From positions 1-35,584 of the forward strand of contig JAOTYQ010000003.1 in the NCBI GenBank assembly GCA_029861725.1: DNA of 35,584 bases, in the 5' to 3' direction. Made by a program: the position numbers and the translations under genes. The notes below the pieces were generated by a model that was given only the letters and a program-made list of their open reading frames with translations, searched no databases and was not told the DNA's origin. Below, piece by piece: positions 18,410-29,114 of this stretch (the first letter of the stretch is position 1; every line of letters begins with the position of its first letter). The stretch is from Acidimicrobiia bacterium. Its GTDB lineage: Bacteria > Actinomycetota > Acidimicrobiia > Acidimicrobiales > SZUA-35.

Positions 18410-19255
18410 TCACGGCGGCGTCGGCTCGAGGTCGAGGCGGGCGGCGATCCCCTCGAGGCCGGGACGGGCCGGGGGATAGCGGTCGAACACCCGGGGGTCG
18501 TGGCCGGGGACGACGTACTCGGGCGACGAGGCCAGCTCGAAGCATCGGCGGTGACCCTCGAGCATGTCACCGAGGTGGTACACGATCGGGAACGGGCGCC
18601 CGCTGCGCATGTTCTCGTAGTAGTGACTGGCATCCGAGGCTAGGACCACCCACCCGATCGCGGTCGACACCCGCACGACCTGGAGGCCCTCGGTGTGGCC
18701 GCCGACGAGGTGCACCGAGATGCCGGGCGCCAGGTCGGTGTCGCCATCGTGAAAGACCACCCTTCCACCATGAACGAGATGCACGAGATCGGCGATGTGG
18801 TCGGCGGTGTAGGCGTGCCCGATCGCCGGCTGAGCCATGTGGCGGCCGGTGGCGTAGCTCATCTCGTCGTCCTGGAGATGGAACCGGGCCGCCGGGAACT
18901 GGGCGAACCCGCCGACATGGTCGTAGTGCAAGTGGGTCAGGATCACGTCGTCGACCTTGGTCGCAGCCACATCGACCGACGCCAACGCATCGGCGACCGA
19001 GCGGACCAAGGTCCGGCTGCGACGCTCGGCGTCGAGGGTGTCGAAGCCGGTGTCGACCACCCAGGTCGCGTCGGGGCCGACGATCGCCCACACGAAGTAG
19101 TCCATGTCCATCGGCTCGTCGTGGGGATCGCCGCCGAGGAAGTGCTCCGGTCGGCGGGCCGATCGCTCGGCGTACTTCAGAGCGTAGATCTCGTGCCGCG
19201 GAAGGTGGTCGGCCGGCGGCTCGACCGGACCGGAGGTTACCGTCGTCGGGGCCAT
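18410..19255 (-). CDS. Metallo-beta-lactamase-fold hydrolase (N-acyl homoserine lactonase family)
   Basis: VVDTG, THLHYDHVGG (HxHxDH), GGHTEG, LASDA, VPGHDP. Confidence 0.9.
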   Translation of the reverse strand: MAPTTVTSGPVEPPADHLPRHEIYALKYAERSARRPEHFLGGDPHDEPMDMDYFVWAIVGPDATWVVDTGFDTLDAERRSRTLVRSVADALASVDVAATKVDDVILTHLHYDHVGGFAQFPAARFHLQDDEMSYATGRHMAQPAIGHAYTADHIADLVHLVHGGRVVFHDGDTDLAPGISVHLVGGHTEGLQVVRVSTAIGWVVLASDASHYYENMRSGRPFPIVYHLGDMLEGHRRCFELASSPEYVVPGHDPRVFDRYPPARPGLEGIAARLDLEPTPP

Positions 19256-19346
19256 GGGCCCGCGACGTTACTCCCCGATGGCTCGGGGCCCGGCAATCTG
19301 TTCCCGGAATCGCACCGCTGCCCGGCGGGGGAATACCGTTGGACCC

Positions 19347-20606
19347 ATGCAACCGACCTATCCACCGGAGACCGAGCAGTACCGGGAGAAGATCAACGCC
19401 TTCCTGGACGAGCACCTGCCGAGTAGCTGGCAGGGCATCGGCGCACTCGAAGACGCCCAGCGGGCGCGCTTCCAGGGCGAGTGGCGGGAAATCCTGCGCG
19501 ACAACAAGCTGCTGGCCCCGAACTGGCCGGCCGAGTACGGCGGCGGTGGGCTCACCCACCTGGAACAGGTCGTGCTCAACGAGGAGTTCGCCAAGCGGGG
19601 CGTCCCCACCTCTGGGAGCAACGACGGGTTCAGTATCGGCATGGTCGGCAACACGATCCTGGCCTGGGGCAGCGAAGAGCAGAAGCAGCACTTCATCCCC
19701 CGGATCCTCTCCGGCGAGGACGTGTGGTGCCAGGGCTACTCCGAGCCGAACGCTGGCTCCGATCTGGCCAACCTCGGCTGCAAGGCCGAGCTCGACGGCG
19801 ACCAGTGGATCGTCAACGGCCAGAAGATCTGGACCTCGAGCGGCCAGACGGCGAACATGATCTTCGTTCTGGCCCGCACGGACCCCGACGTGCCGAAGCA
19901 CAAGGGGATCTCGTTTCTGCTGATGTCGGTCGACCAGCCGGGCGTCGAGATGCGGCCGATCACCAATATCGCCCGCCACGACCACTTCAACGAGGTGTTC
20001 TTCACCGACGCCACCTGTCCCAAGGACAACGTCCTCGGTGGGCTGAACAACGGCTGGGCGGTCGGCAACACGCTCCTCGGCTACGAGCGCGGCGTCGGCG
20101 CGACTACCACGGCACTGTCGTTCGGCGCCGAGTACGAGCTGTTCGTCGACATGGCCCGCAAGCACGGCAAGCTCGGCGACCCGCTCGTCCGCCAGGACAT
20201 CGCCCGGTTCTACACCACCGTTCAGATCATGAAGTACCGGGGCATGCAGGCCCTGACCCGGTTCCTCGCCGGGCAACAGCCAGGCCCGGAGTCGTCGATC
20301 GGCAAGCTGTTCTGGAGTCACCACCACCATCGGATCACCGAAGCGGCAATGAACATGATGGGGGCCGATGCCATGGTCGGCCTCGGCGAGGAGACCCGCT
20401 CCGGTATCGGGGCCCCGGCGATCGGGATCGAGAACACCCCGGCCAACTGGATGAGCAGCTTCCTGGTCGCCCGCCCCGGGACGATCTACGCCGGAACGTC
20501 CGAGGTGCAGCGCAACATCATCGGCGAGCGGGTCCTCGGCCTGCCGAAGGAGCCACGGGCCGACGGGGGCTCCTGGAAGGAGTCTCAGGCGGCGTACAAG
20601 TCCTGA
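19347..20606 (+). CDS. Acyl-CoA dehydrogenase
   Basis: WPAEYGG, WCQGYSEPNAGSDLA, NGQKIWTS, HKGISFLL, FNEVFF, TIYAGTSEVQRNIIGERVLGLP. Confidence 0.95.
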   Translation: MQPTYPPETEQYREKINAFLDEHLPSSWQGIGALEDAQRARFQGEWREILRDNKLLAPNWPAEYGGGGLTHLEQVVLNEEFAKRGVPTSGSNDGFSIGMVGNTILAWGSEEQKQHFIPRILSGEDVWCQGYSEPNAGSDLANLGCKAELDGDQWIVNGQKIWTSSGQTANMIFVLARTDPDVPKHKGISFLLMSVDQPGVEMRPITNIARHDHFNEVFFTDATCPKDNVLGGLNNGWAVGNTLLGYERGVGATTTALSFGAEYELFVDMARKHGKLGDPLVRQDIARFYTTVQIMKYRGMQALTRFLAGQQPGPESSIGKLFWSHHHHRITEAAMNMMGADAMVGLGEETRSGIGAPAIGIENTPANWMSSFLVARPGTIYAGTSEVQRNIIGERVLGLPKEPRADGGSWKESQAAYKS

Positions 20607-24921: not shown

Positions 24922-26538
24922 TCAGGCGGCGGTGACCGTGATCTGGTGCCAGCCGGTGGCTCCGCTCGGAGCCGGAGGCGCGAGCTCGGAGGTCTGGGTG
25001 TAGCCGCTGGCATCGGTCGCCCTGACCCTGATCAGGTGGCGGCCTTCGGTCGCCGTCCACCGCAGCACCCACTGCCGCCAGGCATTCGTTCCGAGCGACT
25101 CGCCCAGCTCGGCTTCCTGCCACTCGTCGTCATCGATCTGGACCTCGATCCGCTCGATGCCGATGTGGGGAGCCCATGCCACCCCCGCGATCGGCACCTC
25201 CGCCCCAGCGGTGACGGGCGTGCCGGTGCGGGGGGTGTCGATCCTCGACTGCGTCTTGACGGGTCCCAGCTTCGACCAGCCGCGGGGTATCCAGTAGCCG
25301 TCGAAGTCCTCCAGCGTTGTCAGCTCGATCTCCGAGACCCACTTGGTAGCCGACACGTAGCCATAGAGGCCCGACACGACCAGCCGGGCCGGGAATCCGT
25401 GACGGAGCGGAAGCGGCTCGTCGTTCATGGCGATCGCCACCATCGAGGTCCGGCCGTCGTAGGCCACCTCGGTCGGAAACCCGCAGCTCCATCCGTCCAC
25501 CGAACGGCTGGCGATCTGTGTCGCCCCTGGTCGGATGCCGGCCTCCTCGAGCAGCTCGGTCAGGGGGACGCCCTGCCACACGGCATTGCCAACGAGCTGG
25601 CCGCCGACCTCGTTCGACACGCACGACAACGTCACCGGCTCGACCATCGTCGCCCGATCGAGGAGCTCCTGATAGGAGTAGCTGATCTCGTTGTCGACCA
25701 TCCCCTTGATCCTGAGCTCCCAGTTCGCCGGGTTCACCTGCGGTGTGAGCACCGCGGTGTCGATCAGGTAGAACTGATCGTTGGGAACGATGAGGGGAGT
25801 GATCCCGGGCGTCGACGCGACGTCGGTCGTCCCGGCTGCGCTGATCTGGGCGCTGAGCTCGCTCTCGGCCAGCCTCGAGTCGAGACGCACCGCGTCGCGG
25901 GCGTCGGTGGCCGAGGATCGGGCCCTGATCACGTTGGCCCCGGCTGTGGCGATCGCGGCCGACGCCCCGACCGCCCCGGCGAGGTTGAAGAAGCCCCGCC
26001 GGGTGAGTGCGGGGTCGGTCGGGGACTCGGTGACGACCGCTTCGTCGGCGTCGCCGTGCTCGGGAGCTGTCACCGTCGCCTGCGGTACCGCCCGTCGCAT
26101 CAGCGCGGCAAGCGCGGCGATGCCCGCGATCACGGCCGCCGCCGTGACGGGGATGGCGGCGCCCCACCCGCCTTGGGCGTCGGTGGCGATGGCGAGCAGG
26201 CCGATCAGCCCGAACGCGCCGATCCCCACGACCCCGGGCAGGAGGCGGCGGCGGGATGCAACCCCGAGGCCGATCGCAGCGGCGAGGGAGACGATGATCG
26301 TGCCCAGCACGAGCGCCGGCTTGTCGGCGAGGCCGAACACCGCCTTGCCGAAGTCGACGAACCAGGTCGGTGCGTTGTCGATGACCCGGTTGGCGACGGC
26401 GACGACCGGGCCCGGGCGTGGGGCCGCCAGTGCGCCGGCGAGCTCACCGATGCTGAGCGCGGCGGCCCCGGCCAGGAGCCCGGCGACACCGGCCCTGAAA
26501 GTGCTCGGCACGGGCCGTTCCGTCTCGGCGGCCGTCAT
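24922..26538 (-). CDS. Membrane-bound molybdopterin-dependent oxidoreductase (sulfite oxidase family)
   Basis: Several N-terminal TM helices, internal TRRGFF twin-arginine-like motif, FYLIDTA, TLSCVSNEVGG (Mo-ligand Cys), PLRHGFPARLVVSGLYGYVSATKW, C-terminal dimerisation domain. Confidence 0.92.
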   Translation of the reverse strand: MTAAETERPVPSTFRAGVAGLLAGAAALSIGELAGALAAPRPGPVVAVANRVIDNAPTWFVDFGKAVFGLADKPALVLGTIIVSLAAAIGLGVASRRRLLPGVVGIGAFGLIGLLAIATDAQGGWGAAIPVTAAAVIAGIAALAALMRRAVPQATVTAPEHGDADEAVVTESPTDPALTRRGFFNLAGAVGASAAIATAGANVIRARSSATDARDAVRLDSRLAESELSAQISAAGTTDVASTPGITPLIVPNDQFYLIDTAVLTPQVNPANWELRIKGMVDNEISYSYQELLDRATMVEPVTLSCVSNEVGGQLVGNAVWQGVPLTELLEEAGIRPGATQIASRSVDGWSCGFPTEVAYDGRTSMVAIAMNDEPLPLRHGFPARLVVSGLYGYVSATKWVSEIELTTLEDFDGYWIPRGWSKLGPVKTQSRIDTPRTGTPVTAGAEVPIAGVAWAPHIGIERIEVQIDDDEWQEAELGESLGTNAWRQWVLRWTATEGRHLIRVRATDASGYTQTSELAPPAPSGATGWHQITVTAA

Positions 26539-26761
26539 CGATGCTCCGCACGGCACGAAACGCCTGGCCCCGGTCGTGCTGCCCTCTGCGGTCCGTACTT
26601 CGGTTTCATCTGCACTGTCTCTCCCCGGGGCTCGGTTTGCGAGATCGGCCCCCGTTCAGCTGTGCAACCATTTTGTCGGCTGTCGCCATCCCGGTCGGCA
26701 CCGACCGTCGTTGGTTTCACCACATGTTCAGATCTCTGGCGGACCGGCGGTCTCGTCCGCG

Positions 26762-26787
26762 GATACCTTGACCGATACGTTGACCGA
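26762..26787 (+). promoter_or_regulatory. Tandem direct repeat upstream of the selenoprotein gene
   Basis: GATACCTTGACC-GATACGTTGACC-GA with a 12-bp period, about 50 nt before ATG 26838. Confidence 0.45.
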
Positions 26788-26837
26788 AGGCGTGCTCGCG
26801 GGGAATGCGCGGTCAGCCGTACCGGTTAGGGAACGCT

Positions 26838-27506
26838 ATGCCCCCAATCCTACGCCCCGGACGACGCCGGAGCCTCGTCGTCGTCCTGGTGGTCCTGGCG
26901 GTGATCGCCAGCGCCTGCGGCGAATCGTCGAGCGATACCGCTACCGCTGCCCCCGCTTCCGTCGACGACGAAGCCACCGCCCCGGCCCGGGCCGAGAGCT
27001 CGACGACGACCGGCCGATCGACCGCCGTTGAGCCCGACGATGGTGGCGAGGGCGGAGATGATGCGGTCGCGAGCGAGTCCGACCCCGGCGAGAACCTCTT
27101 CCCCGACGTCGATGTCGTCAACGTGGCCGATGGCGCCACGATCAACCTGGCCGGCGAGCTCGGCGGTGGCGATCTCCCCGTTCTGCTCTGGTTCTGGGCG
27201 CCCCATTGACCCTTCTGCCGGGCCGAGGGCCCGGCCGTCGAGCAGTTCGCTCAGCAGCACGGTGACAAAGTCCGGGTCGTCGGCATGGGCGCCCAGGACA
27301 GCCTCGATCAGGCCGTCGAGTTCGTGGCCACCACCGGTGTCGAGACCCCGCTGATGCTCTGGGACACCGGCTTCGACTCCTGGATCTATTACGGGGTCAA
27401 CGGCCAGCCGATCGCGATCCTCGTCGACGCCGATGGCAACCCGCTGCAGGGATGGAGGGGCCCGTTCGATGTCGACGAGGTGCTTCGGCTCGCCGCCGAG
27501 GTGTGA
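26838..27506 (+). CDS. Selenocysteine-containing thioredoxin-fold lipoprotein (TlpA/DsbE/ResA-like, UxxC), 222 aa with UGA read as Sec
   Basis: Lipobox IASA-C. PVLLWFWAPH-TGA(27207-27209)-PFCRAEGPAV continues in frame into VRVVGMG..YYGVNGQPIAILVDADG (cis-Pro region). The TGA sits at the first Cys of CxxC, and a SECIS-like hairpin follows. Confidence 0.87.
27217..27235 (+). promoter_or_regulatory. Putative bacterial SECIS element
   Basis: Perfect stem GCCGGGCC/GGCCCGGC with a GAG loop. The stem starts 8 nt after the UGA and the loop G is 16 nt downstream. Confidence 0.72.
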
Positions 27507-27632
27507 ACGACGCCGACTTGCACGCCCCGCCAACGCGGTCGTCCCGGACCCGGCCGGTAGGGGTGGAGATCCCCGAGTAGAGGGCGTAGTCTGCTGCGGC
27601 CGGCGTCCCCGAGCGTTCCAAGGGAGATCCTC

Positions 27633-27827
27633 ATGAAAGTCGTGGTCGATTTCGATCTTTGCGAGAGCAACGCCGTGTGCATGGGCATCGCCCCGGAGGT
27701 GTTCGAGGTGCGGGACGACGACTTCCTGTACATCCTCGACGAGCACCCTCCGCCCGAGCTCCACGACAAGGTGCGGGAGGCGGCCGAGCGCTGCCCGAAG
27801 CAGGCGATCAAGCTAGAGGACGACTGA
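27633..27827 (+). CDS. Ferredoxin ([3Fe-4S]-type, actinobacterial)
   Basis: VDFDLCESNAVCMGIAPEVF...CPKQAI (CxxNxxC...CP). AAGGGAG RBS. Confidence 0.93.
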   Translation: MKVVVDFDLCESNAVCMGIAPEVFEVRDDDFLYILDEHPPPELHDKVREAAERCPKQAIKLEDD

Positions 27828-27863
27828 GCGGCCGGCTCCACACCGAGCCGGCACGCCCCTCCG

Positions 27864-29114
27864 ATGCAACGAGTAGCCGTCATCGGTGCGTCGCTTGCTG
27901 GGCTGCACGCCGTCCAGGCGCTGCGCCGTGGTGACTACGACGGGCATATCGTCCTCGTCGGCGCGGAGCCGCACTACCCGTACGACAGGCCACCGCTATC
28001 GAAGAGCGTGCTCACCGACGACAGCGTCGACGAGTCCCGGCTGCGGCTCCGGCCGGCGGCCGATCCCGACGCGCTCGGGGTCGAGTGGCGGCTCGGCTCG
28101 ACCGCGGTGGGCGTCGACTCGCTCCCGACCGGCGACGGTCCGGCCCGGATCCGGCTCGACGACGGCCGCGGCAAGAGAGGTCCCGTCGTCGAGGCCGACG
28201 GCCTGATCATCGCCACCGGAGCCCGAGCTCGGCCCCTTCCGTCCTCCGAGGGCATCGCTGGCGTTCACCTGCTCCGCACGCTCGATGACGCTCTCGCCCT
28301 CCGAGCCGCGCTGATCTCCGAGCCCGGCCCGGTCGTCGTGATCGGCTGCGGCTTCATCGGCGCCGAAGTGGCCGCGTCGGCCCGCACCCGTGGGCTCGAC
28401 GTCACGATCGTCGAGGCCGCGCCGGCACCGCTGCTCCGGGTCCTCGACGAAGCGGCGGGGATGGCGATCGCCGACCTGCACCGAGAGCACGGCGCCGCCG
28501 TCCACCTCGGTGTGGGCGTCGAAGAGATCACCACGGCCGAAACCGCGACAGGACCGAGCGTCGAGGCCGTGCGGCTCACCGACGGGACCTCGCTCCCCGC
28601 GGCCGTCGTCGTCGTCGGCATCGGCGTCATCCCCAACACGGAATGGCTCGAGAGCTCGGGCCTGGTGATCGACGACGGTGTCGTTACCGACGAGACGTGC
28701 CTCGCCGCTCCGGGCGTGGTCGCGGTCGGCGACGTCGCTCGCTGGCCCAACCGCCGCTTCGGCGGCCGGCTCTCCCGGGTGGAGCAGTGGGACAACGCAG
28801 TCGAGATGGGGAGCTACGGTGGATCCCGGCTCCTCGCCTGGGCCACCGGCCGACCGGTCGAACCGTTCGAGCCGGTCCCGTGGTTCTGGTCGGACCAGTA
28901 TGACCGGAAGATCCAGCTGGCGGGCGTGCCGGCGCCGAACGCCGAGATCGTCCAGGGCTCGATCGCCGAGCGCCGGTTCGTACAGCTCTACACCGACGAC
29001 GACGACCTGGTCACCGGGGCGCTCTGCTGGAACCGCCCCCGTCAAGCGATCATGGCCCGCCAGCTGATCGGTCAGGGGGCGAAGACCAGCGAGATCCGGG
29101 ACGCGCTCAGCTGA
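27864..29114 (+). CDS. NAD(P)H:ferredoxin reductase (putidaredoxin reductase-like)
   Basis: GASLAG, PYDRPPLSK, IATGA, LRTLDDA, IGCGFIGAE, VGD, PWFWSDQY. Confidence 0.93.
   Translation: MQRVAVIGASLAGLHAVQALRRGDYDGHIVLVGAEPHYPYDRPPLSKSVLTDDSVDESRLRLRPAADPDALGVEWRLGSTAVGVDSLPTGDGPARIRLDDGRGKRGPVVEADGLIIATGARARPLPSSEGIAGVHLLRTLDDALALRAALISEPGPVVVIGCGFIGAEVAASARTRGLDVTIVEAAPAPLLRVLDEAAGMAIADLHREHGAAVHLGVGVEEITTAETATGPSVEAVRLTDGTSLPAAVVVVGIGVIPNTEWLESSGLVIDDGVVTDETCLAAPGVVAVGDVARWPNRRFGGRLSRVEQWDNAVEMGSYGGSRLLAWATGRPVEPFEPVPWFWSDQYDRKIQLAGVPAPNAEIVQGSIAERRFVQLYTDDDDLVTGALCWNRPRQAIMARQLIGQGAKTSEIRDALS

Follow-up and report, generated by a model that had tools for sequence, protein, structure and literature searches.

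Two adjoining hairpins follow the selenocysteine codon of a redoxin-family gene in an Acidimicrobiales genome

A predicted selenocysteine codon in a redoxin-family gene

The first 35,584 nucleotides (nt) of contig JAOTYQ010000003.1 from an Acidimicrobiia bacterium (assembly GCA_029861725.1; this whole stretch, which was analysed here, is referred to as the window) contain a gene for a thiol-disulfide oxidoreductase-like protein with an in-frame TGA codon, which is predicted to be read as selenocysteine (Sec, U) and is closely followed by two adjoining hairpins within the coding sequence (Table 1). The W-A-P-H-U-P-F-C protein is obtained by joining the open reading frame (ORF) 26805–27209 to the continuation of the same frame up to 27506, with the start codon being uncertain (ATG at 26805, or an ATG 33 nt downstream), and its N-terminus resembles a lipoprotein signal (…VLAVIASAC…). 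Pfam searches matched the protein to Redoxin (PF08534, 3.7e-8, 33.7 bits versus a cut-off of 26.6) and AhpC-TSA (1.7e-7, 31.6 bits versus a cut-off of 26), and the NCBIfam DsbE, ResA and TlpA models gave partial matches below their cut-offs only; we classify it on sequence grounds as a member of the Redoxin family, and not as a named DsbE, ResA or TlpA ortholog. The nearest solved chains are the actinobacterial DsbF (3IOS, 1.6e-16) and Mpt53/DsbE (1LU4), with the U-P-F-C of the window protein aligning with the C-P-T-C of DsbF.

Table 1. Positions of the predicted Sec gene, its Sec codon and the structures downstream of it (window coordinates)
Feature	Position	Strand	Details
Predicted Sec-containing DsbE/DsbF/TlpA-like thiol-disulfide oxidoreductase gene	26805..27506	+	233 aa with TGA read as U
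Predicted UGA Sec codon	27207..27209	+	first position of U-P-F-C (UxxC) redox motif
Spacer, UGA to hairpin 1	27210..27216	+	7 nt, CCCTTCT
Hairpin 1	27217..27235	+	GCCGGGCC-GAG-GGCCCGGC, perfect 8 bp, codons C-R-A-E-G-P-A
Hairpin 2	27237..27255	+	GUCGAGC-AGUUC-GCUCAGC, codons V-E-Q-F-A-Q-Q; core 27240–27252, loop 27244–27248

The TGA is present in the best homologs from 24/24 genomes of the same family (one TGA each), while a class-wide search found a close homolog in 24 of 301 genomes, with TGA at 27 of the 30 places listed and three without it. The cysteine (Cys) of Cys-containing orthologs aligns with the TGA of the window. The genome, an Acidimicrobiales metagenome-assembled genome (MAG) of 921 contigs (87% complete, 68% GC), also encodes the Sec machinery, with selA and selB both scoring above the curated cut-offs and both located on contig C201, tRNA-Sec on contig C779, and on contig C907 a selD with an in-frame TGA of its own (at G-A-G-U-G-C-K). 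As the TGA is kept in homologs, aligns with Cys and is accompanied by the Sec machinery, we consider TGA 27207 to be a true Sec codon, replacing the first Cys of a CxxC motif in a probable exported, lipoprotein-like enzyme. The SelB protein contains SelB-wing_3, and at its C-terminus it is homologous to the winged-helix domain that binds the selenocysteine insertion sequence (SECIS) in a solved SelB (1WSU, 3.6e-12). The only other strong SelB-like match in the genome, at 198 bits on contig C795, is EF-Tu, and a second SelB reading a different hairpin was therefore rejected.

Thiol:disulfide interchange, Prx-like, UGSC, DUF3179 and rhodanese selenoproteins appear as known predicted families in sections of a 2026 review (PMC13188914). 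The window protein is similar to the predicted thiol:disulfide interchange and Prx-like UxxC families described in those sections, in having a thioredoxin-fold redoxin domain in which Sec takes the place of the first Cys of CxxC, and an N-terminus like that of an exported lipoprotein, but differs in belonging to an Acidimicrobiia subfamily with the signature W-A-P-H-U-x-x-C and its own predicted SECIS layout.

Two hairpins downstream of the UGA codon

Hairpin 1 was first noted in a preliminary description of this DNA, and its layout is exactly as given there: UGA, the CCCTTCT spacer, a perfect 8-bp stem (arms GCCGGGCC at 27217–27224 and GGCCCGGC at 27228–27235) and a GAG loop (27225–27227), of which the G at 27225 is base 16 downstream of the UGA, with 15 nt in between. 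Counted from the U of UGA as nt 1, the loop starts at nt 19. When folded alone with RNAfold, hairpin 1 has an energy of -17.0 kcal/mol, and its pairs reach a probability of 0.99 in the ensemble calculated for the 57 nt downstream of the UGA. As a base-rate control, the same 27-nt stretch was inspected after 6000 in-frame Cys codons, sampled from the 9057 in confident ORFs; a Watson-Crick stem of at least 8 bp followed 0.25% of these codons (1.9% with G-U pairs allowed), and a stem of at least 6 bp with G-U pairs allowed followed 16%. An Rfam scan of 26500–28000 at E ≤ 10 gave five weak matches, none of them to a SECIS family. Whether hairpin 1 exceeds chance is decided by the comparative evidence, and the outcome depends on the control used.

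The preliminary description ended at 27240 and missed hairpin 2, of which the loop starts at nt 38, leaving 34 nt between UGA and loop. The two hairpins are separated by 0–1 nt in all 65 close Sec homologs described below, and likewise in selD.

Conservation of the hairpins in Sec and Cys homologs

The collection of homologs was widened by scanning species-representative genomes, which yielded Cys orthologs (W-A-P-H-C-P-x-C) in Paraconexibacter, Sporichthyaceae and Microthrixaceae, among others. Leaving out 12 of the 123 contexts, which were duplicates or shorter than 120 nt, retained 111 unique and sufficiently long sequences. Grouping relied solely on which codon occupies the Sec position and on the tblastn E-value (≤1e-25 being close), and gave 65 Sec-close, 18 Cys-close, 18 Sec-far, 7 Cys-far and 3 other sequences, the latter including L032, for which the frame was missed in the blast alignment. 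All 65 Sec-close sequences align over 60 columns without gaps (alignment A1).

In the relatives of the window gene, hairpin 2 is mostly GUYGAGC-AGUUY-GCUCRAC, with 6–7 bp over the codons V-E-Q-F-A-(Q/R), and its loop has the form NGUUN in 65/65 sequences (AGUUU in 31, AGUUC in 28, GGUUC in four, AGUUG and AGUUA in one each). Pairing of A1 columns 31–37 with 43–49 was found in 92.3% of cells, as compared to 30–39% when the partners are slid, and none of 500 shuffles reached the observed values. Five of the seven pairs have changed on both sides, and pair 33–47 (CG in 38 sequences, UA in 24, GC in two and CA in one) couples a synonymous Val site with a Gln/Arg replacement. The Ala codon within hairpin 2 is the rare GCU in 62/65 sequences, while GCU represents 8% of the Ala codons of the genome. 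RNAalifold on the 65 sequences returned hairpin 2 as the only consensus structure, and the hairpin 2 region folds at -8 kcal/mol or lower in 61/65 Sec-close sequences versus 3/18 Cys-close and 1/7 Cys-far sequences. To judge from these comparisons, hairpin 2 is the Sec-specific and sequence-specific element of the tandem. The window itself is the sole sequence of the 65 with CA at pair 33–47, as it combines Val GUC with Gln CAG, where its relatives have GUU with CAR or GUC with CGN; this C·A mismatch could have arisen recently, or could reflect a variant in the assembly.

Hairpin 1 behaves differently, being found with at least 6 contiguous bp in 50/65 Sec-close sequences (at least 5 bp in 63/65) versus 3/18 Cys-close and 1/7 Cys-far sequences, and the combined rate in Cys homologs (4/25) is at the genome background of 16% described above. 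Among these 50 Sec homologs there are 37 distinct versions of the hairpin, with the stem starting anywhere from nt 8 to nt 15 (modes 11 and 13) and with loops of GAG (17), GGC (7), AGC (7) or one of 13 other loops, UGA and AGUC included; GU occurs in the loop of a single sequence (AGUC). The paired columns fall into two registers, with i+j = 40 in the group of the window and 44 in the CGUCGGGA-GGC-UCCCGACG group, thus differing by 4 in their sum, and either fixed register pairs only 57.9% of the A1 cells. RNAalifold did not recover hairpin 1 from the 65-sequence alignment because of this register shift, and hairpin 1 was therefore scored per sequence. The version in L022 (CAGGCGC-GAA-GCGCCUG) pairs a rare AGG with a rare CCU codon, and the stem is kept in L080 (GUCGCGC-UGA-GCGCGAC) and L081 (GUCGCUC-AGUC-GAGCGAC), in which the encoded peptide has changed to C-R-A-E-R-D-E and C-V-A-Q-S-S-D, respectively. 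Hairpin 1 thus appears to be conserved as a structure with compensatory changes, and not as a sequence or loop.

Synonymous recoding separated the Sec and Cys homologs for both hairpins. In the hairpin 1 region, the median minimum free energy (MFE) of the Sec-close sequences was -13.4 kcal/mol (null mean about -8.5; p ≤ 0.05 in 22/65), while that of the Cys-close sequences was -5.4; in the hairpin 2 region the corresponding values were -10.8 (null mean about -6.5; p ≤ 0.05 in 46/65) and -4.75. Neither region reached p ≤ 0.05 in any Cys homolog (0/18 close and 0/7 far, 0/25 in total). Four sequences of the sister subfamily described below, which have a second in-frame TGA (UxxU), were excluded from this test.

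The tandem layout in selD and the other Sec genes of the genome

The selD gene of the genome (L163/L165, contig C907) has the same order of elements, the UGA being followed after 7 nt by an 8-bp stem capped by CCC and then by a hairpin with a GGUCG loop. We compared 26 unique Sec forms of selD from relatives with four Cys forms (alignment A2). The first hairpin, for example AGCUCGCC-CCC-GGCGAGCU starting 7 nt after the UGA, has at least 6 bp in 21/26 Sec forms, with CCC, CCG or CCU loops, and the second, for example GGCGCA-GGUCG-UGCGCC, in 25/26, with 88.5% and 99.4% of A2 cells paired, respectively. The second hairpin contains three covarying pairs, its loop bases G37 and U38 are invariant, it is the hairpin that RNAalifold picks, and it was found in 0/4 Cys forms. 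One genome of the same family (G017, 95% complete) gave no SelD match and contains only Cys homologs of the window protein.

The Sec-far sequences belong to a sister subfamily (subfamily B, W-A-P-W-U-x-x-C), whose single hairpin, over P-A-V-A, combines a bulged stem of some 8 bp and a GGUC loop; hairpin 1 is absent from these Sec paralogs, with a stem of at least 6 bp in 3/18. Its members are L098/L164 (contig C567), L039, L040 and L082–L102, and four of them (L088, L089, L092 and L093) have two in-frame TGAs covering both redox positions (W-U-P-F/H-U-R), giving a UxxU motif.

To place the layout among the other Sec genes, the MAG was scanned for in-frame TGAs using GC content at third codon positions (GC3), which gave 287 candidates, of which 26 were chosen by redox motif, with selD and one paralog added. 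Since the scan required 40 codons on each side of the TGA, the resulting count of at least 27 selenoprotein genes (the window gene and at least 26 others) is a lower bound, and it makes this 87% complete MAG selenoprotein-rich for an actinobacterium. Pfam families were matched by 24 of the 27 candidate proteins scanned, and comprised FdhA, two Prx, three CMD/AhpD-like, six GRDB-like, DUF3179, four UGSC, further redoxins, glutaredoxin, rhodanese and SelD. The scanned set included a 'D-U-S-C' candidate (contigs C799 and C807), which was dropped, as its sole Pfam match (Rieske) ends before the TGA. In the set of at least 27 as a whole, eight GRDB-like selenoproteins carry U-P-x-C and four AhpD-like ones CxxU. 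The selenoprotein genes are spread over contigs C52, C69, C119, C136, C139, C146, C185, C189, C200, C206, C214, C315, C328, C368, C370, C471, C505, C549, C567, C625, C626, C670, C714, C729 and C907. Sections of a 2026 preprint on Actinomarina, from another order of the Acidimicrobiia, report the Sec machinery and a Sec-containing SelD, with Rfam models giving no SECIS.

A GU-loop hairpin of at least 6 bp follows the UGA in 22/27 Sec genes, the window gene included, as compared to 11.4% of 5000 control Cys codons. These loops comprise GGUCU (FdhA), GGUCG, CGUGA, GUG or GUC triloops, GUU and AGUU, and mostly start at nt 21–29, with the GGUCU of FdhA providing G22-G23-U24. The UGSC genes have 8–9 bp stems with GUG or GUC triloops as their sole hairpin, and the base of the hairpin lies 12 nt from the UGA in FdhA and 11 nt in the UGSC genes. 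Only three genes have the GU loop at nt 36–38, namely selD, a paralog on contig C370 and the window gene, and these three are exactly the genes with an intervening triloop hairpin of 8–10 bp.

A proposed two-hairpin signal

The reading that we favour, with a probability of roughly 0.6, is that the Sec-decoded TGA is followed by a tandem signal, of which hairpin 2 would be read by SelB while hairpin 1 would be a conserved accessory helix. SelB would recognise hairpin 2 by the G-U in the apical loop, as it does in bacterial SECIS that have been characterised; we infer this from the match of the invariant G-U to both the other SECIS of the genome and known SelB recognition. Hairpin 1 is, on this reading, selected as a helix of any sequence beginning 7–9 nt after the UGA, which would put it at the mRNA entrance when the UGA is in the A site. 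It may serve to fold away 19 nt and so bring hairpin 2 within the reach of SelB, which would leave the base of hairpin 2 at a distance from the UGA similar to that of the single FdhA (12 nt) and UGSC (11 nt) hairpins. Alternatively, it may be a pause or helper stem that keeps the ribosome at the UGA, in the way of the eukaryotic selenocysteine redefinition element (SRE), a UGA-adjacent stem-loop aiding recoding according to sections of PMC4561486.

The bacterial SECIS (bSECIS) model of bSECISearch, in the form given in sections of the 2026 review (PMC13188914), has an apical loop of 3–9 nt, an upper stem of 4–16 bp, a G in the first two loop positions that is mostly followed by G or U, 16–37 nt between UGA and loop, and an MFE of at most -7.5 kcal/mol; the same sections state that a subset of bacterial SECIS fails the consensus model and that distinct classes are probable. 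In the window, loop and stem measure 3 nt and 8 bp for hairpin 1, and 5 nt and 4 contiguous bp for hairpin 2. Hairpin 2 resembles the model as a stem-loop in the coding sequence 3′ of the Sec UGA, with an AGUUC loop 34 nt from the UGA, and differs from it in the separate, full hairpin that lies between the UGA and the GU-loop hairpin. Hairpin 1 departs from the model with G-A instead of G-G or G-U, and with 15 nt before the loop.

In the E. coli fdhF SECIS, loop bases G23 and U24 have a role in recognition by SelB, and PDB entries 1WSU, 2PJP and 2UWM are complexes of the SelB C-terminal domain with SECIS RNA. The system described here is similar to that of E. coli fdhF and SelB in the homologous C-terminal winged-helix domain, the G22-G23-U24 of FdhA and the invariant GU of hairpin 2. 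Unlike the fdhF-type layout, the GU loop of the window is located about 16 nt farther from the UGA than that of FdhA, with a 19-nt hairpin in the gap.

Hairpin 1 is similar to an SRE in being a stable stem a few nt after the UGA, without conserved sequence and separate from a factor-binding SECIS, whereas the SRE is eukaryotic and its SECIS is located in the 3′ untranslated region. The original work on the SRE is reportedly that of Howard et al. in 2005, and we know of no established bacterial SRE. The likeness is a conjecture about function, and not an assignment of hairpin 1 to that class. For the tandem layout itself there is a precedent in the SelD of Clostridiales, where a stem2 was predicted downstream of stem1, with stem2 alone fitting the model (Mariotti et al. 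2015, PMC4561486, sections of supplementary file 9). The same tandem layout is shared here by selD and the DsbE/F-like gene; the Clostridiales case differs in that it comes from another phylum, concerns SelD only and is a prediction given in the supplement, the relevant sections of which hold no comparison with Cys forms or a second family. This note was the only one on tandem or bipartite bacterial SECIS found in the literature, with the supplement of that paper being searched in part.

Folding energy alone proves nothing in this genome of 68% GC, as the 76-nt region shows no advantage over dinucleotide shuffles (z = 0.10, with 103/200 folding at least as well). Several observations weigh against the two-hairpin reading. 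Hairpin 1 of the window is not significant as a single sequence on the conservative synonymous null, since 12.5% of 200 synonymous recodings fold as well (p = 0.125), and the hairpin 2 region of the window is likewise not beyond synonymous recoding (p = 0.27). Hairpin 2 is weak in the window, with 4 contiguous bp, the C·A mismatch (27239/27253) and -5.2 kcal/mol when folded alone, which falls short of the bSECIS limit of -7.5, while in its relatives the median for the hairpin 2 region is -10.8. The loop of hairpin 1 (nt 19) is nearer to the usual nt 21–29 of the genome than that of hairpin 2 (nt 38), and a spacer is not strictly needed, as the published model in the sections cited permits 16–37 nt (PMC13188914); in subfamily B the GGUC loop lies at about nt 30 without an intervening hairpin. 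A stem at the hairpin 1 position also occurs in 3/4 Cys forms of selD, and in two Cys homologs of the window protein, L067 (genome G217, contig C3; CAGGGGU-GAG-GCCCCUG, with rare AGG and CCU codons) and L036 (genome G017, contig C3; GCUGAG-GUUC-CUCAGU), where the stems may be left over from a Sec form since lost, or be due to chance. Finally, the homologs are mutually related, so that the counts overstate their independence.

Beyond this locus, it is conceivable, though at somewhat less than even odds, that Acidimicrobiia (perhaps together with the Clostridiales SelD) have a two-module class of SECIS, consisting of a distal GU-loop hairpin bound by SelB and a proximal stem of any sequence 7–9 nt from the UGA, which would act as an SRE-like element or foldable spacer and would have evolved separately in two or more unrelated gene families. 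Bacterial SECIS are poorly defined outside a few model genes, and the 65 UGA and 25 Cys homologs, together with a selD of the same layout, form a natural data set in which a sequence-specific hairpin is separated from a structure-only one. If the proximal stem aids recoding, selenoprotein finders that expect a single hairpin would mis-place the SECIS, as happened in the preliminary description, expression in other hosts would need both modules, and a pre-eukaryotic origin of UGA-adjacent helper stems would become testable.

Alternative explanations

The preliminary description proposed that hairpin 1 is itself the SECIS, in a lineage-specific variant with a GAG loop. If this G-first triloop were the site bound by SelB, hairpin 2 would be a separate element or a stabiliser, and we regard this as unlikely. 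It would agree with the minimal bSECIS model in the 3-nt loop, 8-bp stem, leading G and energy of hairpin 1, with the position of the loop near that usual in the genome, with the triloop stems that the UGSC genes have as sole hairpin, and with the window, where hairpin 1 is far stronger than hairpin 2. However, the loop is variable and contains GU in 1/50 homologs, the selD counterpart has CCC, CCG or CCU, the register shifts between subgroups so that RNAalifold does not recover the hairpin, the Sec paralogs of subfamily B do without it, and the 15 nt from UGA to loop are at the edge of the 16–37 nt range. What stands of the original proposal is that hairpin 1 lies in the SECIS region after a true Sec codon and is conserved, with the SelB site more likely being hairpin 2; a lineage-specific GAG variant is not borne out, as the loop varies freely and the other SECIS of the genome have ordinary GU loops. 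The comparisons suggested at the time bear this out in part: hairpin 1 is not equally present in the Cys homologs of the window protein (50/65 versus 4/25) and shows compensatory changes, it is present in most close UGA homologs and in the selD Sec forms but not in subfamily B, and the other UGA genes of the genome mostly have a GU-loop hairpin after the UGA.

Less probable still is that hairpin 1 has no RNA function and results incidentally from the GC-rich codons of a palindrome-prone peptide, C-R-A-E-G-P (CGG GCC GAG GGC CCG), leaving hairpin 2 alone as the SECIS. The shuffling and recoding values for the window fit this explanation, as do the stems in the selD Cys forms and the similar stems formed by Cys homologs with R-G-E-A-P (L067 and L130). 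The survival of the stem after loss of the peptide motif (L080 and L081) and through register shifts argues against it, as do the 37 versions in 50 sequences, the rare AGG/CCU pairs that preserve pairing, and the difference in recoding between Sec and Cys homologs (median MFE -13.4 versus -5.4; p ≤ 0.05 in 22/65 versus 0/25). The caution voiced in the preliminary description, that GC-rich DNA forms hairpins easily, holds for the folding energy, which is no better than that of shuffles, but not for the perfect stem, given that an 8-bp Watson-Crick stem follows only 0.25% of the control codons.

A coaxial stack of both hairpins into one extended element, with both needed by SelB or the ribosome and neither sufficient, would account for their joint conservation and the spacing of 0–1 nt in all 65 homologs and in selD, but the other SECIS of the genome are single hairpins, and we consider this improbable. 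We also considered pairing of the hairpin 1 loop with the 3′ arm of hairpin 2 in a pseudoknot, and rejected it for the lack of loop conservation.

Neighbouring features of the window

The Sec gene is preceded on the opposite strand by an ORF (24922–26556, -) which by eye resembles a membrane-anchored molybdopterin oxidoreductase of the sulfite oxidase type. Downstream of the Sec gene are, again by eye, a small ferredoxin-like ORF (27633–27827, +) and a ferredoxin reductase-like ORF (27864–29114, +). The GC3 scan also flagged an in-frame TGA at 20604–20606, with high GC3 in the frames on both sides; we treated it as an ordinary stop codon rather than a Sec codon, since it ends the 450-aa ORF 19254–20606 and an ORF in the same frame follows 30 nt later, from 20637. 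A tRNA-Ala (CGC) is located at 24–98, at the left end of the window.

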